Below, one piece after another: positions 4,893-16,271 of a stretch of 17,248 bases of DNA; the stretch's first letter is position 1, and each line of letters begins with the position of its first letter. The notes under the pieces were generated by a model, which saw only the letters and a program-made list of their open reading frames with translations, did not search any database and was not told the DNA's origin. Source of the DNA: a virus (Duplodnaviria; Heunggongvirae; Uroviricota; Caudoviricetes); the IMG/VR virus record IMGVR_UViG_2778261313_000007. The stretch is one strand, 5' to 3'. Position numbers and translations under genes: made by a program.

Positions 4893-6947
4893 TCAGTCAA
4901 CTTTTTTCTGAACTACGGTCAGTGCGCTATGGTCCATAACAGCCCAATCCAGATCAGCCCATACACGGAAGTACAGGTTGCCAGCCGCGCGACCTGTGGT
5001 ATCGTCGCAATCCAGTTCCAGCGATCCGAAGTCTGCAACAACAAGGGAGCTAAAGTCACCAAACAGCATGGTATCCTGAGCAACTACACCAGAGCCATAG
5101 ATCGGACGGTTAACCAGTTTATCGCCTTCTACCAGGAAGCCCGGAACATTAGCTGCTTTGAGTTGCGCTGCCAGTTCAGCTTTAACAACACCACGGGTAG
5201 CAAATGCCAGATCCGCTTCGTTATAACCTTTGTCGGTCAGTTCAGCTACCAGTTTCAGGAACTCGGCATAGGTCCAATCAATCTGTTTAACTTTGCCAGC
5301 GTCGGTCAGGATCTTAGTCAGACCATCACGAGCGTTAGTGTTAGCAGCATTGGACAGAATCGCTTTTTCCAGAGCGATAGCACTGTGTTTCAGCATGTGC
5401 TCACCAACGATAGCGCCAATATTGGGCAGTGTGATTGCAGCCTGACGCGTTACAGGAACAATTCCGTTAAAAGTCTTGAGAGTCATCGGCTGCGCTGCAA
5501 ACTTAATAGTACCTTCACCAGCGGATTGACCTTCTGCAACAAAACCGAAGTTTTCCAGATTGCTGGAAGTCAGAGACGGCAGAGAAACAGGACCAGTTGC
5601 GTTAATGGTACGCACACCCAATTTACCCAGAATAGAACGTTCCATGATCATATCAACGAAGCAATCATGGCGGATTTCTTCACCAACTACTGGTTTCAGA
5701 GATTCCATGTTCTGGCTAGCACGCAGAGCGGACGCCGGAATGAATACGGAGTTAGAACGCTGCGCACGACCACGCGCTGCGGCTTTACGTGCTTCTTCCT
5801 GAGAATATTCAGCTTCTGCGCCAGTCAGGGCTTTACCCTCTGCGATTGCACGTACAGCTTTATTAAGATCGAAACGGGATTCCAGAGTTTTAATGGTATC
5901 GGTCATGGTAATTTTTCCTTTAACAAAAGTTTTAGATTCGGTAGTATTTAGTGCGCGTGCTTTTTCTTTAAAATTTTCAATAGTCACGGCACTATCTTTA
6001 ATTGCAGCTTCAATCACGTCTTCGGAGATATTTAGATGTTTTCCGATAGCACGAATTTCGGCGGTATCTTCGCGAGAACGTTCAAACGGTTTTTCTTCGT
6101 CTTCAATCTTTTCTTCTTCGACTGGTTCGGATGTATTTTCCGTTTCGTCGTTCTCGTCTGTATCTTTATTTAGTTCTTCTGTTTCTTCCGGTTCATCTTC
6201 GGAACGTTCTTCTTTTTCTTCTGGCGTTACTTCTTGCGGTTCTTCCACATCTTCGCCACTGTCAGCACTATTTCCAGAATCGGAATCAATTTCTTCATTT
6301 TCTTGTTCCTCTTTCTCTTCTTCGGAACGTTTTTCTTCATCTTCCGGTTTAATTTCTTCGACCGGAGTATCTTTAATTTCGTCTTCCACTTGTTCACCCT
6401 CCAAAACAATCATTTCGTTGTCTGTATTTAGAGAGCGTCCAACACCCGCATTAAATGGATCTGCGGCACACGTTACAAGACTGCATTCGAAAGGTTGCCA
6501 GCGTGTAACATAATAGATCCCTTTGTTAAAATCGGCTTTGCCATCAAGAACGTTATAACCGACGCTAACTTGTGAAAGTGTTCCCTCTTTTACCTTCTCA
6601 AAGCATTCATTAGCCAGTTGGCCTACTTTGGAGAATTGGACAAGGCAACGACCTACACGGTCTTCGTCAATACGAGCGGAGCCAGGAACAATCTTGCCGA
6701 TATGAAGATCCAGATTGTGATTAAACAGAAGACTTGCGTTAGTCTCGTTTAAAACGGATAGATCAACCGCTGATTCATCGTGTACGAGAATCTCTTTTAA
6801 TTCGACTTGCTCGCCGTCCTGATTCATGTAATAACGTGTATAAGGAGCCTCGCTTGAGAAAGCCAATTCAATAATTCGTTCGTCTTTTTCTTCGATAAAA
6901 TCAGGGGTATCTACCGCAACACTACGACGGAATTGTTTTGTTGTCAT
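4893..6947 (-). CDS. prohead protease / acidic scaffold-like linker / HK97-fold major capsid protein fusion
   Basis: ATG 6945-6947 with AAGGTGA SD, stop TGA 4893-4895. N-terminal roughly 180 aa resemble a caudoviral prohead protease. A middle stretch of about 100 aa is extremely E/D-rich (DNA roughly 6077-6392). The C-terminal roughly 330 aa have an HK97-type capsid pattern. Sits immediately after the portal gene. Domain assignment is from recollection of family patterns, not a search. Confidence 0.75.
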   Translation of the reverse strand: MTTKQFRRSVAVDTPDFIEEKDERIIELAFSSEAPYTRYYMNQDGEQVELKEILVHDESAVDLSVLNETNASLLFNHNLDLHIGKIVPGSARIDEDRVGRCLVQFSKVGQLANECFEKVKEGTLSQVSVGYNVLDGKADFNKGIYYVTRWQPFECSLVTCAADPFNAGVGRSLNTDNEMIVLEGEQVEDEIKDTPVEEIKPEDEEKRSEEEKEEQENEEIDSDSGNSADSGEDVEEPQEVTPEEKEERSEDEPEETEELNKDTDENDETENTSEPVEEEKIEDEEKPFERSREDTAEIRAIGKHLNISEDVIEAAIKDSAVTIENFKEKARALNTTESKTFVKGKITMTDTIKTLESRFDLNKAVRAIAEGKALTGAEAEYSQEEARKAAARGRAQRSNSVFIPASALRASQNMESLKPVVGEEIRHDCFVDMIMERSILGKLGVRTINATGPVSLPSLTSSNLENFGFVAEGQSAGEGTIKFAAQPMTLKTFNGIVPVTRQAAITLPNIGAIVGEHMLKHSAIALEKAILSNAANTNARDGLTKILTDAGKVKQIDWTYAEFLKLVAELTDKGYNEADLAFATRGVVKAELAAQLKAANVPGFLVEGDKLVNRPIYGSGVVAQDTMLFGDFSSLVVADFGSLELDCDDTTGRAAGNLYFRVWADLDWAVMDHSALTVVQKKVD

Positions 6948-9092: not shown

Positions 9093-10997
9093 TTAGAACG
9101 ATGTTACCCAGCTACGGCCTCTATTTGGGCGTCTGGCGATGTTTTGACGTTGTGGTCGTGTGATTGGCTTAGTTTCTTCGATTTGCTCGTCAGATTGCGT
9201 TTCAGGAGCTTTTACGGGTTCTTCTGGTTCACGGTTCAAACTATCTTTGATGGCTTCGAGTTTTTCCCATGACATTTTATTGAGTACATGGCGAGAAGCA
9301 GCATAGGAATAAGCCAGGCAGTCGAGAGCCTCGTTTCGTTGCTGACCAACTTTTACCCAACGTGTGGTATTACCCTGCCGTTTCAACTGTTCAGAAAGCA
9401 ATTGCTCGCAATAGTCATCAGGAACGTCACCAATCTGGAAGACAGTATGAGGATCGCCATCTCTCAAGTTCCGGTTAATCATTTCACGGATCATCGTCTT
9501 AAGGTTGTTTACGCCCAGAATTTTGAGAGTAAAACCGCCCGTTCTTGTGTCCTTAGCCGGAAGGATTGGAGCATCAGCATTACTTGCGCCTTTAATGGCG
9601 CATAGGTTTTGCCACCTAGTGCAAAAACGGTAGATCACGTTTGTAGCTCGTCCGTTCGATGAGTCCACGAAAGCAGATAGCATCGGGATTCGTTCACCGG
9701 ATCGGGTATAGAATTTCGCTTTCAGGAAGTTATAAAGCTGGTCATATGCTGGTGATTCGTGGCGTTCGCAGTTCACATCATAGAATGATCGGTGATCAAC
9801 TACGCATATCCCCTTACGAGAGATACCCAGCAAGGTAGATTCCAGACGGTCTTTTTGCTGGTCAACTCCACCTACCAGAGCCAGTACATCATCAGGAATA
9901 TTGTCTAGGCTAATATCAGTTTTCAGCGTTTCCAGTTCGTCGGCTGTGCGATCTTCGTTAAGATCATCGAAGGTTTCACCGAGGACTGTATTGTAGAACG
10001 TTGCTAGTGACATATTCGCGTAGCTATCAGCAAAGTCCACCACACACGCACGGATAGAACTAAACGGAGACATAAGGCGGTTAGCATGAAAACCGATTAC
10101 TTCCGCATTTGGTTCCGTAGCAATCCATTCACCTTGAGCAACAGCACGTAGGCGATCCCCTTCTGTCCAATCAGTTTCACATGACGGGCAACGATAAACG
10201 GCAGTATCTGGATTCGGCAGTGATTTACAGTTAATCGTATGCCAATCAAAGAAAACTCTACTCCATTCCATTACGTGCTTGTGTCCGCAATGCTGGCAAA
10301 CGACATGATATTTTCTCTTATCCGAGAGTTCCCATTGTTGGTTAATCGCCCCATCACGAGCGGTTGGAGTGGAAGCAATTACGATCCTTGCATCTTCCCC
10401 GAAAGTGGTTGCGCGTTGTTCCGCTAGCTGGATCGGGTTCCCTTCGTCTGACTCATCAGCCGCATCAACTTCATCAAGAATAATCAAAGGGAGTGTTTTA
10501 CCGCGAAGATGTGACGGACTATTCAACGACATGAAATACATAAACGATCCGTTACGAAGCTGAATAATCGATGAGTTGTTAACGGCATTGCGATCTGATT
10601 TGTCGGTGATCATCGCCTTTAATTCTGGTGTTGCCTCTAATACTGGCTTCACCTTACCAGCGATCCAGCTATTCAACTCGCGGACATTCGATTGCAACAC
10701 CCCGATATTAGTAGGGTTACTCGCGATCCGATGGAAGATAATTCCGTTAAGAATCATGGTCTTACCCAACTGCGCCGAACATTTAAACACAATTTTTCTA
10801 CGGTCTTCGGTGATCGCGTCCATCATTCCACGTTGGAAGGGATGCAATTTAATTAGCGATCCGGCTTTAACACCATCGGTCGCAACTACATTAGCCTCTA
10901 CCCATTCGCTAGGTTTCATGGTTTTAGGTGGACGAATTGCAGCAGAGATATTTTTGAGAATCTTTTTTAATTTTGCCTTATTAGAAATCAGTTTCAT
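9093..10997 (-). CDS. terL: terminase large subunit (GpA-like)
   Basis: ATG 10995-10997 with GAGGGT SD, stop TAA 9093-9095. 634 aa. Deviant Walker A KCSAQLGKT, Walker B LPLIILDEVDA, Cys pair motifs CQHCGH...CPSC (zinc-ribbon-like), and a C-terminal acidic nuclease-like region. First gene of the structural operon. Confidence 0.85.
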   Translation of the reverse strand: MKLISNKAKLKKILKNISAAIRPPKTMKPSEWVEANVVATDGVKAGSLIKLHPFQRGMMDAITEDRRKIVFKCSAQLGKTMILNGIIFHRIASNPTNIGVLQSNVRELNSWIAGKVKPVLEATPELKAMITDKSDRNAVNNSSIIQLRNGSFMYFMSLNSPSHLRGKTLPLIILDEVDAADESDEGNPIQLAEQRATTFGEDARIVIASTPTARDGAINQQWELSDKRKYHVVCQHCGHKHVMEWSRVFFDWHTINCKSLPNPDTAVYRCPSCETDWTEGDRLRAVAQGEWIATEPNAEVIGFHANRLMSPFSSIRACVVDFADSYANMSLATFYNTVLGETFDDLNEDRTADELETLKTDISLDNIPDDVLALVGGVDQQKDRLESTLLGISRKGICVVDHRSFYDVNCERHESPAYDQLYNFLKAKFYTRSGERIPMLSAFVDSSNGRATNVIYRFCTRWQNLCAIKGASNADAPILPAKDTRTGGFTLKILGVNNLKTMIREMINRNLRDGDPHTVFQIGDVPDDYCEQLLSEQLKRQGNTTRWVKVGQQRNEALDCLAYSYAASRHVLNKMSWEKLEAIKDSLNREPEEPVKAPETQSDEQIEETKPITRPQRQNIARRPNRGRSWVTSF

Positions 10998-11083: not shown

Positions 11084-11680
11084 ATGCTAATTAATCAGCA
11101 AGAAAGAGATGAATTAGCCTTGTCTTGTACCGATCATGAATATCGTTTGCCAGTAAAACATAAGCACTTAAAGACCGATTACACTACATCCGGTTTTAGT
11201 CGCGAAGAAGCGAAAGAGATTTTAATCGAGTTGTATCGCGATCATGGGTATACCGATATTCACAACTTCTTTAAGAAGCATAGAACATCACATACAGAGT
11301 TTCGGAGAGTCCGAGATTGGTTTGATTTTGATATCAAGCGTTATTATCGCATTGATGACGGTCCTATCTATCGGTTGCAGTGGAAGCCGATCCGAGAAGT
11401 GTTGAAACAGAAGAGATTGAATCACGCTATTACACGCTATCGTAACGAGGCTTTCAAGAAAGGCTATGGTGATACAAGGGAACTATTCGTTGAACTCGCT
11501 AACGTGAAGTACAGCCACTATTACAACGATCCTAAATCCTTCTTTGAAGTGCTTCGCAAGGTTGATATAAGTCGGGGTACATACTATTCACGGTTGAAGA
11601 AGTACGGGATTAAGGCAGAGTTCTTTATGTCGGTTGACGATGGAGAACTTTTTCCGATAAAATGTAAGTCCTCTAAATAA
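11084..11680 (+). CDS. DNA-binding protein with C-terminal helix-turn-helix (resolvase/IS-type HTH-like); regulator or possible small terminase
   Basis: ATG 11084 preceded by AAGGAGGG SD. 198 aa. C-terminal DISRGTYYSRLKKYGIK matches the HTH-like motif shared with the two small proteins at 11715 and 14977. Divergent from terL. Confidence 0.55.
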   Translation: MLINQQERDELALSCTDHEYRLPVKHKHLKTDYTTSGFSREEAKEILIELYRDHGYTDIHNFFKKHRTSHTEFRRVRDWFDFDIKRYYRIDDGPIYRLQWKPIREVLKQKRLNHAITRYRNEAFKKGYGDTRELFVELANVKYSHYYNDPKSFFEVLRKVDISRGTYYSRLKKYGIKAEFFMSVDDGELFPIKCKSSK

Positions 11681-11714
11681 AAGTGAACATTCACTTTAAT
11701 TTGGAGAAATGACT

Positions 11715-11942
11715 ATGACTACTAAAACTACTCGCGGTCGTCCTGCCCGTTTTAACGCTGAACAAATGGCTGATATTGCCTACGCTTATTATACAGCGGA
11801 TCGTGGTAAGGAAGCGAAAGAACAGATTCTTAGTGAACATGGGATTTCAATTGCCCAATTCTATAAGAATATGAAGAAGTTAGACATTAAATTCTATGTT
11901 CAGATCGGTGATGGTCAGATCGTAGAAGCAACAGGTTTTTGA
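11715..11942 (+). CDS. small DNA-binding protein (AT-hook-like RGRP N-terminus plus HTH-like C-terminus)
   Basis: ORF-track ORF starts at 11709, but the GGAG SD at 11703-11706 is better spaced for the second ATG at 11715 (MTTKTTRGRPAR...). Motif GISIAQFYKNMKKLDIK is paralogous to 14977..15159. Followed by a strong terminator. Confidence 0.45.
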   Translation: MTTKTTRGRPARFNAEQMADIAYAYYTADRGKEAKEQILSEHGISIAQFYKNMKKLDIKFYVQIGDGQIVEATGF

Positions 11943-12906: not shown

Positions 12907-12997
12907 AGTAAAAATTCCCCTTAAACGGTTTAGTGATTTGGTCCTCCTAGTTCCGGCAGCATCACCGGAACAATTTTATTTATAAGAAGTTTTTATC

Positions 12998-13144
12998 TCA
13001 TTTAGATTCAGCAATCGCGCGATCAATTTCTTCTTGAATGCGACGCTGGCGTTCATGGAAGTCAACCATTGAGAAATTCAGGTTTGGGGTCCACGGTTTG
13101 CGGTTCGGGGTTTTACGTCCATCAATTTTCTTAGTAGTGTTCAT
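12998..13144 (-). CDS. small basic protein (48 aa), first gene of the rha operon
   Basis: Below the ORF-track size cutoff. ATG 13142-13144 preceded by AAAGAGGA SD. Protein MNTTKKIDGRKTPNRKPWTPNLNFSMVDFHERQRRIQEEIDRAIAESK. Sits directly downstream of a TTGACA-17-TATGAT promoter with palindromic operator. Confidence 0.35.
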   Translation of the reverse strand: MNTTKKIDGRKTPNRKPWTPNLNFSMVDFHERQRRIQEEIDRAIAESK

Positions 13145-13202
13145 AATTAACATCCTCTTTACAAATCTAGGTCAAATAGGATCAAAGTTGTCAAGTGCGA
13201 TA

Positions 13203-13231
13203 ATCATAAAAAAGTCAGAAATTTTTGTCAA
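13203..13231 (-). promoter_or_regulatory. sigma70-like promoter for small ORF plus rha
   Basis: On the minus strand, TTGACA (complement of 13226-13231), a 17-nt spacer, then TATGAT (complement of 13203-13208). Embedded in the TTGTCAA/TTGACAA operator-like palindromes. Confidence 0.5.
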
Positions 13232-13266
13232 TGCCCCTTGACAAGACGCCAAGGGGTTGACCTAAC

Positions 13267-13734
13267 TTACAGCATATCTAAGCCTTCGTCGTAACCGTAG
13301 AAGCCATTCTGAGAAGAAAAACAGATTGGTGCGTAGTCGTCGTCATCTTCGTCTTGTTCATCTTCTTCTGGGGCTTCCTGAGCGGTTTCTTTGCCGTAGT
13401 TAAACATTGCTTCATCCAGTTCATAGACAGTAACGAAGCTACCCAGGTCAATGTCACCGGAACGGACTTCAAACGGAAGATCATCACGAACAATAATTGC
13501 TGGTAGATCCTGGTACTTTAAGCGTTCTTCATCGGTGAAGACGTTAACAACAATGGTCGGCTTCTTATTACGGTAAAACGCATACCATGCACTAGAGAAA
13601 TGGGATTCATCAGAGTTGAAAAGGATGTTATAACCACGTTCACGGAACATCTTCATTAACTTGTCATTGTGGAAGCTATCAGAATCCAGACCCAGAAGGA
13701 TAAAAGGAGTAGTGGTAGTCATCTTGTGGTTCAT
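13267..13734 (-). CDS. hypothetical protein with strongly acidic C-terminal tail
   Basis: ATG 13732-13734 with AGAGGA SD. 155 aa. C-terminal EAPEEDEQDEDDDDYAPICF... resembles the acidic tails of SSB-like or DNA-mimic proteins. First gene leftward of the large control region. Confidence 0.55.
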   Translation of the reverse strand: MNHKMTTTTPFILLGLDSDSFHNDKLMKMFRERGYNILFNSDESHFSSAWYAFYRNKKPTIVVNVFTDEERLKYQDLPAIIVRDDLPFEVRSGDIDLGSFVTVYELDEAMFNYGKETAQEAPEEDEQDEDDDDYAPICFSSQNGFYGYDEGLDML

Positions 13735-13934
13735 AGTGGAAATCCTCTAAAAGAAAGTGAATCAATCTAATATTATTTATAAAGAGAAAATTCTTGTTAT
13801 TATGAAAGGTGATTGTATTCAGTCGGGCAAAGCCCTCCTTCATAGATTTTGAATAAATCATCATCAAAACGAAGAAGTATCTTTAGAATATAAGAATCTT
13901 TCTTTTGGAGAAATAATAATCAGGAAGCAATTTG

Positions 13935-13963
13935 GCAACCGAAGGTTGCAATCCCGAAGGGAT
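13935..13963 (-). other. tandem UUCG-type hairpins
   Basis: Two adjacent inverted repeats: GCAACC-GAA-GGTTGC (13935-13949) and ATCCC-GAA-GGGAT (13951-13963). On the minus strand both read as C(UUCG)G tetraloop hairpins. Confidence 0.4.
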
Positions 13964-14089
13964 AACCAATACCTTTCTAGAAAGTGATTGTTACTCACTT
14001 CGTTCGTTTACTAGAATCAGTTAGTAACTAGTATTAAATCCCTTTCTGAGAAAATCCTTTCAAAAGCGAGTGAACGCCGTAGGTGTGAA

Positions 14090-14169
14090 CGTGAGCGAAG
14101 CGAACTATCCAATCCCTTTCGAATCCTGCTTGCAGGTCTTAGAAGGTGTTGATGGGCGCTTCGCGCACG
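14090..14169. repeat. extended imperfect dyad symmetry centred on a CCTGC-TT-GCAGG palindrome
   Basis: Arms CGTGAGCGAAGCG (14090-14102) and CGCTTCGCGCACG (14157-14169) are reverse complements with one mismatch. The midpoint coincides with the palindrome at 14125-14136. Partial symmetry extends out to about 14073-14180. Confidence 0.6.
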
Positions 14170-14310
14170 GCTACGCCGTATTCTTTTTGCGAGATCTTTC
14201 TTGAACGTAGTGAGAGAAAACGAGCAAAAAGGAGAACGTTAGTTCGAATTTTATATTCTATGGTCTGTGTGGTGAAATGTCTTTCAAGATCATACACTTA
14301 TGAGATTGAA

Positions 14311-14407
14311 GTGTAGGGTTAGTGTAGGTGTGTAGGTGTTATAGTGTAGGTTTACTGGCTAGTGTAGTGTAGGCCAATCCCTTTAAAGCGTAGGTTTGTA
14401 GTGTAGG
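14311..14407. repeat. cluster of seven direct GTGTAGG(T) repeats (iteron-like)
   Basis: Six exact GTGTAGG copies starting at 14311, 14322, 14330, 14344, 14367 and 14401, plus the variant GCGTAGG at 14388. All in the same orientation, 8-23 bp apart, immediately left of an AT-rich tract. Confidence 0.7.
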
Positions 14408-14413
14408 TTTTTC

Positions 14414-14430
14414 ATCAAAAATTTTGATAG
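14414..14430. repeat. 15-bp palindrome ATCAAAAATTTTGAT (operator-like), copy 1
   Basis: Perfect palindrome at 14414-14428. The 15-mer CAAAAATTTTGATAG (14416-14430) recurs exactly at 14565-14579. Confidence 0.6.
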
Positions 14431-14515
14431 AAAATTCTTGTATATTATTTAACCAGAAAATCACCAAAAACCGCTGTAAATGCATGATTTAAAAAGAATT
14501 ATCAAAAGGTCGTCG

Positions 14516-14524
14516 TGCTATAAT
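14516..14524 (+). promoter_or_regulatory. extended -10 promoter candidate
   Basis: TGcTATAAT (TG at 14516-14517, TATAAT at 14519-14524). The -35 is weak. Confidence 0.4.
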
Positions 14525-14564
14525 AGGTTATAAAGGTTGATAATCGTTATCCGCCATTTTCACA

Positions 14565-14579
14565 CAAAAATTTTGATAG
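14565..14579. repeat. copy 2 of the CAAAAATTTTGATAG element
   Basis: Exact 15-nt direct repeat of 14416-14430, lying about 25 bp upstream of the -35 of the strong plus-strand promoter. Confidence 0.6.
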
Positions 14580-14604
14580 TCATTTCTCGCTTAGATCAAG
14601 TGTA

Positions 14605-14633
14605 TTGACAACTATCAAGGATTATTTTATACT
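14605..14633 (+). promoter_or_regulatory. near-consensus sigma70 promoter
   Basis: TTGACA (14605-14610), a 17-nt spacer, then TATACT (14628-14633), directed toward the 14977-16529 genes. Confidence 0.6.
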
Positions 14634-14921
14634 TTTTCTCGTTGGTAGGGGTTGAAATTTTCGAAACAATCCCCATATTGATGATACGCAAGATTTTTTC
14701 GTGTATAAATACATGCATGAAAATGATTGTTCACTTCTGAAAATCCCCTGATTCACTGTTAATTCATACAGCACTGGCTAAACATACAGTACTTATTCGA
14801 TTGAATAATGTACGAATTGATTAATTATTAATCTTCTCTTTAGCAATTCGTGCTCCCACTGATCGGATATACAGTGGTTTTACAGGGTTTTTCGAAAAAC
14901 ATTTTATAAATAGAATTGTTC

Positions 14922-14941
14922 AGAGCAAAAAGCTCTTTTTT
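14922..14941 (+). terminator. weak hairpin plus T-run just upstream of the 14977 RBS (attenuator or leader terminator candidate)
   Basis: AGAGC-AAAAA-GCTCT followed by five to six T residues. Short AU-rich stem, so low confidence. Confidence 0.3.
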
Positions 14942-14976
14942 AAGAAATCATTATTCCAGATTTAGGAGGATATAAG

Positions 14977-15159
14977 ATGGCACGACCTGTTAAGTTCACT
15001 CGTGAAATCGTTTTAGAAATGGCAAAGCGTTATTTTGAACTGACACCTGATGTAGTGATGGGTGAATGGTTTAAAGGTGAAGGTATTGATCAATCAACCT
15101 TCCACAAACTCTTAAAGAAGTATGACATTAAAGTAAAGATTACCGCCGAGGTCTGGTAA
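14977..15159 (+). CDS. small DNA-binding protein (HTH-like), paralog of 11715..11942
   Basis: ATG 14977 preceded by AGGAGGA SD. 60 aa. N-terminal ARPVKF and C-terminal GIDQSTFHKLLKKYDIK align with the other two HTH-like proteins. Confidence 0.5.
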   Translation: MARPVKFTREIVLEMAKRYFELTPDVVMGEWFKGEGIDQSTFHKLLKKYDIKVKITAEVW

Positions 15160-15203
15160 TAACCTTTCACTGAGAATTATATGATGGCTTTAAAAATAAA
15201 AAA

Positions 15204-15231
15204 GCCTCCCTGTTGGCGCAAGGAGGCTTTT
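15204..15231 (+). terminator. terminator-like hairpin between 14977..15159 and the acidic-protein gene
   Basis: GCCTCC (15204-15209), a 12-nt loop, GGAGGC (15222-15227), then TTTT. Confidence 0.45.
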
Positions 15232-15275
15232 GATATGAACAATTAAACTAACACAGAGCATTCAGGAGTATTTAT

Positions 15276-16271
15276 ATGAAAAATTCTAAGCGCATTACCT
15301 TCAACATGTTTATTAAATCCAACGGCAAACTGAACATCACTGTCATGGAAGGTAAAGCAAGCAAACAAGACAAATCCTTTGAAGTAGTATCAGGTAAGAC
15401 TCTGACCGAAATGCGTCAGAATGCTGGCATCAAAGACGGTGCTGAATGGCAGATCACCAACCGTTTCGACAAACGTCACGTTAAACCTACACTGGTAGAA
15501 GGTGAATCCGTTTATTGCTTCGCTCGTGCTGTTAAAGCTGATGAAACTTACTATCTGGCTGTTGTTAAAACTGCTTCCGGCTTCCGTGCTGTAATGCATC
15601 ACAAGAGCAAACGTAACGAATACGGCGTAGAGACCCAGGAAGTCGCAAAACGCTTCCGTACTGTTGCTACCGAATCCACTGTAAAGGATGTTTCTGGTAC
15701 TGTTAACACCGCTAAAGGCGGTTCCTTCTACAACCACGCATTACAGGTTACTTCCTCCTTCTTCTGCAAAAAAGAAGCACAGAAAGAAGTTTCTCCGGTA
15801 GTAGTTGAAGAAGTTAAAGAAGAAGTTGCAGTGGTTGAATATTCCGAAGTTGAAGCACTGAAAGCACGCATCGCTGAACTGGAAGCTGAAAACGCATCTC
15901 TGAAAGCTGAACTGGCAGCACAGGAAACCACTTTCGAAGTAGCAGCGGTTGAAGTTGAAGCAGTTGAAGAAAAATCCATTGATGAAGAACTGGAAGAACT
16001 CCTTAACTATCGCTGGGGTGTTGTTGCAGAAGTAGAACAAGAAGTTGCTCCGGTAGTTGTTCCGGTTGAAGTTGAAGAAGAATCCGCACCTGTTACTAAC
16101 TTTGAATCCCTGCGCAATAACTTTATGGCTAAATTCAAAACCACTTGGGAAGATACCGAAGAAGAACAAGAAGAGATTGAAGTAAACGAAGACGAGATCC
16201 GCGAAGCACAGATGGCACTGCATGACGCTATCTACGACACCAACTACAGCGCCTACGCATACGCAGCTTAA
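15276..16271 (+). CDS. two-domain protein: basic N-terminal domain plus acidic coiled-coil C-terminal half; high-expression codon usage
   Basis: ATG 15276 with AGGAG SD. 331 aa. The C-terminal half is dominated by E/V/A with heptad-like EALKARIAELEAENASLKAELAAQE. Codons are strongly biased to CTG/CGT/GGT/GCT/TTC/AAC, unlike the rest of the window. Confidence 0.65.
   Translation: MKNSKRITFNMFIKSNGKLNITVMEGKASKQDKSFEVVSGKTLTEMRQNAGIKDGAEWQITNRFDKRHVKPTLVEGESVYCFARAVKADETYYLAVVKTASGFRAVMHHKSKRNEYGVETQEVAKRFRTVATESTVKDVSGTVNTAKGGSFYNHALQVTSSFFCKKEAQKEVSPVVVEEVKEEVAVVEYSEVEALKARIAELEAENASLKAELAAQETTFEVAAVEVEAVEEKSIDEELEELLNYRWGVVAEVEQEVAPVVVPVEVEEESAPVTNFESLRNNFMAKFKTTWEDTEEEQEEIEVNEDEIREAQMALHDAIYDTNYSAYAYAA

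Follow-up and report, generated by a model that had tools for sequence, protein, structure and literature searches.

The window analysed here is a 17,248-nucleotide stretch of DNA from a tailed phage (Caudoviricetes; IMG/VR record IMGVR_UViG_2778261313_000007). The gene under study, hereafter the target, is a leftward open reading frame (ORF) beside a long non-coding region and encodes a protein of 155 amino acids, predicted to consist of a small folded head and a disordered, acidic C-terminal tail (Table 1). The target ORF is a genuine conserved gene. Its homologues comprise ~110 cluster representatives from E. coli, Shigella and Salmonella, every one of which is named ‘hypothetical protein’. 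When 5.8 billion proteins were queried, 79 clusters were retrieved, none from outside E. coli and Shigella, and an exhaustive hidden Markov model (HMM) profile search of 1.8 billion representatives recovered the target family alone, adding a few distant members that form a Salmonella enterica branch of ~30 clusters. No other protein family with the target tail was found in the exhaustive search, and its sole ‘tail-only’ match (P0079) is an in-frame deletion derivative. Searches of phage and plasmid record collections (tblastn) gave 0 matches and a scan of genome contigs gave 0 confirmed loci. Of 5,426 complete E. coli genomes, 58 have the gene and 54 have its conserved neighbour orf198; with counts so close, the target is a core gene of its prophage lineage. 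Among 30 distinct E. coli alleles, the ratio of non-synonymous to synonymous substitution rates (dN/dS) amounts to 0.31 in the N-terminal part and to 0.48 in the tail.

A preliminary description of the locus, made from the sequence alone, had noted a poly-acidic C-terminal tail and likened it to those with which SSB-like proteins and DNA mimics engage partner proteins. The acidity is real: the last 40 residues, ending ...KETAQEAPEEDEQDEDDDDYAPICFSSQNGFYGYDEGLDML, include 15 D/E and zero K/R, 11 of the 15 residues at positions 119-133 are D or E, and no member lacks an acidic run, the 20 residues ahead of the DYxP motif containing 7-16 D/E. However, the protein continues beyond the run for 22 more residues, YAPICFSSQNGFYGYDEGLDML, which are rich in aromatic and hydrophobic side chains and form the best-conserved part of the target. 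AlphaFold2 was run twice (with 28, then 43 aligned sequences) with the same outcome, and both runs predict residues 116-155 to be disordered (predicted local distance difference test (pLDDT) 34-45).

Two short motifs emerge in the tail (Table 1). Among the 43 aligned E. coli and Salmonella sequences, D133, Y134, P136, F139 and L155 are invariant, and D131, D132, S140, S141, G144, G147, Y148 and M154 are conserved in at least 90%. The C-terminal heptad pattern [DNH]-[EDS]-[GA]-[LF]-[DEQ]-M-L occurs in 100 of 102 full-length representatives; P0004, the largest single cluster (282 member sequences), is an exception to M-L and ends GLDTL. Comparison of E. coli with Salmonella copies gives 55% identity for residues 131-155 (proportion of non-synonymous differences (pN) 0.25), against 37% for the head (pN 0.43) and 30% for the acidic run, with synonymous sites saturated throughout the gene (proportion of synonymous differences (pS) ~0.8). 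As judged from these alignments, the acidic run is conserved in character and the motifs are conserved in sequence. Being predicted disordered, strongly acidic and furnished with short motifs that persist across E. coli and Salmonella, the tail does appear to resemble those that engage partner proteins. A literature search on the tail motifs returned only unrelated (radiomics) papers, and possible likenesses of the tail to DYLDIPAF, the C-terminal peptide of FtsZ, and to DFDLDML of VP16 were set aside.

Two E. coli head alleles are 55% identical (pS 0.63), whereas their tails are 87% identical (pS 0.15), and an intragenic recombination breakpoint lies near codon 115. Two diverged heads thus share one tail, which indicates recombination within the gene and marks the tail as a conserved module to which different heads can be joined. 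Across 34 loci, the alleles of the head show no co-variation with those of orf60, orf77, Rha or TerL. That the tail stays constant while heads and phage backgrounds vary speaks for a conserved partner, for which a host protein is the simplest candidate.

The head is modelled by AlphaFold2 as a confident alpha/beta domain (residues ~8-115, pLDDT 80-88) with strands (E) and helices (H) at E11-14, H21-33, E36-39, H46-56, E60-65, H68-72, E79-81 and H103-112. The topology of the model appears P-loop-kinase-like but without a Walker A motif: GxxxxGK[ST] is absent between the first strand (b1) and first helix (a1), and the loop that joins them (GLDSDSFHND, GFNADNYDH or GFALRPHTY) is the most variable part of the head. 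Foldseek searches of PDB and viral models (BFVD) gave no match with E < 0.09, and searches of Pfam, PHROGs, PADLOC and NCBIfam with the target and all 43 aligned members gave nothing significant, the top sub-cut-off family matches being DUF4835 (E 0.0016) and BRCT_3 (E 0.02). In a sequence profile search of PDB, no match scored below E 0.26, and a CheY-like stretch at the N-terminus and the acidic loops of calmodulin that came up there were judged to be noise. A receiver (CheY-like) domain was likewise rejected, with P-loop-like folds scoring above it and the acidic-pocket geometry not conserved. The whole protein has a pI of 4.2 and a net charge of -20 over 155 amino acids, and the head alone has a net charge of -5 and a pI of ~5. 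Because the head is itself acidic, nucleic-acid binding is unlikely. On the basis of the model, the head appears to be a three-layer alpha/beta scaffold of a generic kind, in which no active site can be recognised. The remote-homology searches and structure prediction proposed in the preliminary description thus delivered a folded head and a disordered tail but no family or fold assignment. Nor does the protein look like an unrelated enzyme with a non-conserved acidic appendage, the possibility set against the original idea: neither an enzymatic fold nor a catalytic motif turned up, and conservation is highest in the tail.

The target belongs to a prophage lineage of ~35 kb that is hosted by E. 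coli, Shigella and Salmonella and is found in ~1% of complete E. coli genomes. The E. coli H2 prophage splits hicB, carries a large serine recombinase at its far end and encodes lambda-type TerL (gpA) and portal genes. In NZ_CP028733.1, positions 2523685-2558848 (L001, L002) are occupied by a ~35-kb prophage inside hicB, with the antitoxin gene split into two partial coding sequences (CDS), and the large serine recombinase of this prophage has 559 amino acids. The nearest TerL in the phage collection is only 43% identical. The order of genes is orf60 (divergent), a 1.2-1.5-kb non-coding region, the target, a small ORF, a Rha/Ant-like gene, orf77 plus orf198 (opposite strand) and TerL. It is the same in 34 IMG/VR loci, one of which (L003) is identical to the window, and in 4 Salmonella loci (38 in total). 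With Pfam, PHROGs and NCBIfam, no repressor, excisionase, directionality factor or replication protein was recognised in the prophage. Clamp, polymerase, gp55 and replisome genes were also not recognised among the prophage proteins scanned, several of which have no assignment, so absence is not proven.

Several of the neighbouring proteins are small and basic. The products of orf60, orf77 and orf198 are paralogous, with a common RPxxF...GI...F.K..KK.DIK pattern (pairwise E 3e-6 and 9e-4) and no family assignment, and they probably regulate the phage by binding DNA. Among the non-structural genes, orf198 is the most conserved (87-99% identity among E. coli loci); its product has a pI of 9.4 and a net charge of +10, and those of orf77, orf60 and orf51 have a pI of 9-10. 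The slot after the target holds either a basic protein of 51-59 amino acids with a common VDFxERQRR motif in E. coli and Salmonella (orf51 in the window) or, in about half of the loci, an unrelated acidic protein of 110 amino acids that ends ...YEYAIPYYEEDQVEIDW. The hairpin and promoter between the target and the slot gene are conserved with either gene.

Conserved short motifs in an acidic disordered tail, on a head that diverges, are the signature of a partner-docking tail. The reading that we favour, with confidence that falls somewhat short of an even chance for the package as a whole, is that the target is a partner-docking disordered tail on a non-enzymatic head, serving as an adaptor or a decoy. 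The small alpha/beta head would then diversify and recombine freely while the 40-residue disordered tail acts as ‘bait’, docking in a hydrophobic groove, flanked by basic residues, of a highly conserved partner; the acidic run could provide long-range electrostatic steering or nucleic-acid mimicry. The leading candidate for the partner, although not a likely one in absolute terms, is the DNA sliding clamp, namely the host beta clamp DnaN; no clamp other than that of the host is known to be at the disposal of this phage. With the clamp as partner, the target would tether its head to the replication hub, or compete with other clients, in the non-lysogenic phase. A fuller version, which we hold to be doubtful, makes the target a phage client or hijacker of the host beta clamp that has no relationship to known clamp partners, combining a degenerate P-loop-like head, a Gln-less T4-like EGLDML, DDDYxPIxF as a second motif and a polyanionic linker. 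Because the prophage has no recognisable replication genes and its regulatory genes stand behind TATAAATA boxes without a -35 element, such a client might, in the manner of T4 gp33 or Mu MuC, link the transcription or replication of the phage with the host replisome. It might instead fill both clefts of the clamp dimer and so halt replication in the host.

The clamp was proposed on the basis of the C-terminus. The EGLDML of the target matches EGLDFL, the validated gp45-binding motif of T4 ligase, at 5 of 6 positions. Composition-preserving shuffles of the tail reached a 5/6 match anywhere in 39 of 20,000 cases and within the last 8 residues in 10 of 20,000, frequencies that must be multiplied by ~5-10 because the comparison was post hoc and several motif classes had been compared before; after this 5-10-fold discount, the motif match is suggestive. 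No LD[FM]L motif or [DE][LM][FL] C-terminus occurs in the other proteins of the window. GLDML lies at the extreme C-terminus and within a segment with pLDDT < 50, which is the terminal, disordered placement expected of a clamp client, and positions 3-5 of the motif, [DEQ]-M-L, fit the clamp pattern in 100 of 102 representatives (P0004 has D-T-L). In T4, clamp epitopes described as ‘hydrophobic and acidic’ lie at the C-termini of gp43, gp55 and gp33, a small acidic co-activator, and the linkers that carry them are unstructured and vary in sequence (PMC2988020). The C-terminus of gp43 (EKASLDFLFG) can be compared with the loop of T4 ligase (EPEGLDFLFD), which binds gp45 with a dissociation constant (Kd) of ~11 µM (PMC6212786). 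The target resembles these T4 tails in ending an unstructured, variable linker with a short hydrophobic/acidic epitope, and resembles gp33 in being a small acidic phage protein, but the folded parts are non-homologous and the target has no final Phe and has Met for Phe. The T4 gp33 protein is, moreover, helical, whereas the target is alpha/beta. The bacterial beta-clamp motif of polymerases, Hda, MutS, transposases and the Mu proteins MuC and Mor is also terminal and in a flexible region, and positions 2-5 of the target motif, L-D-M-L, fit x-L-[SD]-[LM]-[FL]. Its published forms are QL[SD]LF and, in the Mor/MuC family, Qx[DE][LM]F, and a Mor motif that keeps just DLF of the consensus is reported to be functional (PMC12867686).

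Besides the post hoc nature of the comparison, several observations weigh against a docking tail, and against the clamp as its partner in particular. Position 1 of the clamp motif is G or A in all 102 representatives and never the Gln that begins most bacterial motifs, and the C-terminal residue is Leu rather than the bacterial Phe. In P0004 there is also Thr at position 4, so Met154 is not strictly required. The closest motif match is to T4, yet no T4-type clamp was recognised in the prophage, and motif 1 (DDDYxPIxF) is without a validated counterpart. AlphaFold gave no hint that the tail folds back on the head or forms a helix. The target is broken by a frameshift, deletion or stop in several prophages (P0070, P0076, P0079, L010 and L036) and is therefore dispensable for survival of the lysogen.

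Other explanations place the emphasis on the charge of the tail or on a different partner. The polyanionic tail and acidic head may together block the DNA- or RNA-binding site of some protein, with the hydrophobic motifs adding affinity only; possible targets include a restriction or defence nuclease, RecA, H-NS, RNA polymerase and the phage’s own repressor. This electrostatic alternative, which we consider unlikely, draws on the net charge of -20 over the whole protein, of which -15 lies in the K/R-free last 40 residues, on an acidic run that is present in all members despite varying sequence and length, as fits a charge-based role, and on the position of the target as a solitary unit beside the regulatory region of a temperate phage. 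Acidity throughout the protein makes imitation of, or competition with, nucleic acid likelier than binding to it, a point that counts for the docking-tail reading. Ocr, ArdA and DinI act by charge mimicry, blocking nucleic-acid-binding sites. Phage DNA mimics that inhibit host proteins have a precedent in SPO1 Gp44. Like the target, T7 Ocr, ArdA and SPO1 Gp44 are small, very acidic proteins of phages whose genes lie close to where a transcription unit begins; they act by competing with DNA. However, the likeness to DNA mimics drawn in the preliminary description was not borne out, as searches of Pfam, PHROGs, PADLOC, NCBIfam and BFVD structures linked the target to no known family of mimics or anti-defence proteins, whether by sequence or by fold. 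Known DNA mimics present carboxylates on a rigid fold, whereas the charge of the target is concentrated in a disordered segment, and its conservation peaks in the non-acidic motifs rather than in the run (55% versus 30% identity between E. coli and Salmonella). A partner encoded by the same phage seems less probable still. In that case the target would be an anti-repressor or anti-regulator of one of the basic proteins encoded by orf198, orf77, orf60 and orf51, or a directionality factor for the large serine recombinase. Several basic proteins are indeed encoded nearby, three of them (orf60, orf77 and orf198) paralogous, and the target shares its block with a Rha/Ant-like regulator. Large serine recombinases such as that of the prophage depend on a directionality factor, and such factors have no common fold (PMC11795197). 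Elsewhere in the prophage none could be recognised, and neither could a repressor or an excisionase. Against a phage partner stand the lack of co-variation of head alleles with orf60, orf77, Rha and TerL, the replacement of the adjacent basic orf51 by the acidic 110-amino-acid protein in about half of the loci with no change in the tail, and the lack of positive evidence for any specific protein. The same replacement led us to reject orf51 as an obligate partner.

The two remaining alternatives concern the identity of the protein itself. DDDYAPICF might imitate the C-terminal tip of SSB and compete for the SSB pockets of ExoI, RecQ, PriA, the chi subunit and others, a proposal that we regard as very improbable. 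The tip of E. coli SSB reads ...MDFDDDIPF, and in the target an invariant D-D-D...P-[IV]-x-F element likewise stands behind an acidic disordered segment. The extreme C-terminus (DEGLDML) is also acidic and hydrophobic, though its pattern is another one; E. coli SSB, T7 gp2.5 and T4 gp32 recruit partners with disordered acidic tails that have hydrophobic ends. Recognition of the SSB tip nevertheless uses the free alpha-carboxylate of its terminal Phe, whereas DDDYxPIxF is internal (residues 131-139 of 155), 16 residues from the end, and its residue order differs (Y-A-P-I-C-F versus I-P-F). The target has no OB fold, no SSB family match and an acidic head, and the SSB-like identity entertained earlier is accordingly abandoned. 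It is harder still to credit that the target is an enzyme, whether degenerate or novel, with an alpha/beta domain that resembles kinases or binds nucleotides and a tail that only localises or regulates it. Several polar residues of the head (R33, N36, N56, T60, R71, Y74 and D107) are invariant, which speaks for such a domain; by contrast, the absence of Walker A, the variability of the b1-a1 loop, and the failure of Foldseek at E < 0.09 and of all family models to find a relative speak against it.

The target family is an orphan without a described relative, although its design is well known from SSBs, T4 gp33, gp55 and gp43, T7 gp2.5 and others: a head that folds, followed by a disordered acidic tail whose end carries docking motifs. 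If the tail binds the clamp or another replisome hub, the target would be a new and very compact plug-in to host DNA replication for a temperate enterobacterial phage. It would then also be a third independent case, after T4 and Mu, of phages using clamps outside replication proper, and it would offer a natural Gln-less clamp-binding peptide, such peptides being interesting as antibacterial leads. If the tail binds nothing, the target is just another orphan phage protein with an acidic disordered end. In addition, the target provides a handle on a prophage lineage whose non-structural genes are nearly all without assignment.

Table 1 Features of the target, its control region and its neighbours in the window.
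Feature	Position	Strand	Description
Target CDS	13267-13734	(-)	Complete, ATG start, 155 amino acids plus TAA stop; orphan prophage protein; taken from the ORF list
Shine-Dalgarno sequence AGAGGA of target	13743-13748	(-)	8 nt before ATG; GAGGA invariant in E. coli and Salmonella loci
Folded alpha/beta domain, residues 8-115	13390-13713	(-)	Predicted order b-a-b-a-b-a-b...a
Disordered tail, residues 116-155	13270-13389	(-)	Net charge -15, no K/R, 5 aromatics
Poly-acidic run EAPEEDEQDEDDDD, residues 120-133	13336-13377	(-)	Kept in all members; sequence and length vary
Tail motif 1, DDDYAPICFSS, residues 131-141	13312-13344	(-)	Family pattern D-D-D-Y-x-P-[IV]-x-F-S-S
Tail motif 2, FYGYDEGLDML, residues 145-155	13270-13302	(-)	Extreme C-terminus; pattern Y-[DNH]-[EDS]-[GA]-[LF]-[DEQ]-M-L-COOH
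Promoter-like element TTATAAATA (13774-13782)...TAGTG...TTGATTCAC (13757-13765)	13757-13782	(-)	Invariant in 4 E. coli and 4 Salmonella loci
Hairpin GGGC-TTT-GCCC	13825-13835	(-)	~90 nt upstream of ATG; compensatory GTGC...GCAC in Salmonella L037 and L038
Hairpin CCCCTTG-N9-CAAGGGG	13234-13256	(-)	Begins 11 nt past stop; no T-run; region conserved whichever gene follows
Sigma70 promoter TTGACA-17-TATGAT	13203-13231	(-)	11/12 positions; serves next unit (orf51, Rha); conserved in E. coli and Salmonella loci
TATAAATA boxes	12977-12984, 13774-13781, 14704-14711, 14905-14912, 15269-15276	(-), (-), (+), (+), (-)	No conserved -35
Slot after target (orf51 in window)	12998-13153	(-)	Holds either of two genes
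orf60	14977-15159	(+)	Small basic protein
orf77	11709-11942	(+)	Small basic protein
orf198	11084-11680	(+)	Small basic protein

The region between the target and divergent orf60 (13735-14976) is 1,242 nt long and ORF-poor, and it is mosaic; across all 38 related loci of E. coli and Salmonella its length stays at 1.16-1.55 kb. The target adjoins this region and is the first leftward gene from it, as originally described. The accompanying term ‘promoter-rich’ is apt only in part: a generic scan found a mild excess of sigma70-like sites (11 versus 6.6 +/- 2.2 in shuffles), and the more distinctive feature is a cluster of TATAAATA boxes. Five such boxes occur in the window against 1.09 expected, all within 12977-15276; one stands 40 nt before the target, one ~70 nt before Rha and two before orf60, and most are 40-270 nt upstream of these genes. 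In the whole H2 prophage, 6 of 6 copies are intergenic and 5 are correctly oriented before the 139-amino-acid protein/recombinase operon, Rha, the target and orf60; further copies precede TerL and orf198 in a Salmonella relative. This 8-mer equals the T4 late-promoter consensus; no gp55-like factor was found. The promoter-like element of the target has no conserved -35. Rfam detected nothing in the non-coding region, including no C4/CI-type immunity RNA, and a tRNA search found none.

Downstream, the hairpin that begins just past the stop codon is possibly a weak terminator, to judge from its sequence, and because a near-consensus sigma70 promoter starts the next unit, the target looks monocistronic. 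The target thus has its own conserved promoter-like box, and its promoter class looks common to the regulatory genes of the phage. This arrangement is compatible with the early expression proposed in the preliminary description, or at least with non-structural expression, timing as such not being readable from sequence.

The non-coding region contains two further elements. At 13935-13963 (-), two tandem hairpins have 3-nt loops (ATCCC-TTC-GGGAT and GCAACC-TTC-GGTTGC). The stems in Salmonella relatives are wholly different (TGCAGC/GCTGCA, GGATGC/GCATCC and TCCAC/GTGGA), and the four variants fold alike on either strand. Different stems with the same fold amount to strong covariation for a structured RNA or DNA element. 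The second element, at 14307-14411, consists of ~8 copies of GTGTAGG (+)/CCTACAC (-) in 105 nt, and the block 14400-14070 is restricted to loci that also carry orf331 and orf80. Salmonella L037 has TGTACA repeats in the equivalent place (~9330-9410), and its right-arm genes differ (366 and 306 amino acids). Both sets of repeats look like iterons or operators for a module-specific binding protein and possibly mark an origin. The co-occurring orf331 (15276-16271 (+)) encodes a very acidic protein (net -22) with a central coiled coil and a Glu/Val-rich, low-complexity C-terminal half that ends ...YSAYAYAA; it co-occurs with the CCTACAC repeat block, and no homologue was found in the phage collection.

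Two observations concern the terminase and capsid genes. Just past the right end of the window, L001 24383-24937 (-) encodes a 184-amino-acid protein that matches a terminase small subunit PHROG (E 1.5e-11). This putative small subunit is ~6 kb from TerL, and the whole orf80-orf198 block, including the target, lies between the two terminase genes. At 4893-6947 (-), a 684-amino-acid major capsid protein is apparently fused to its own prohead protease, and its Salmonella relatives have the precomputed domains Peptidase_S78 and Phage_capsid.

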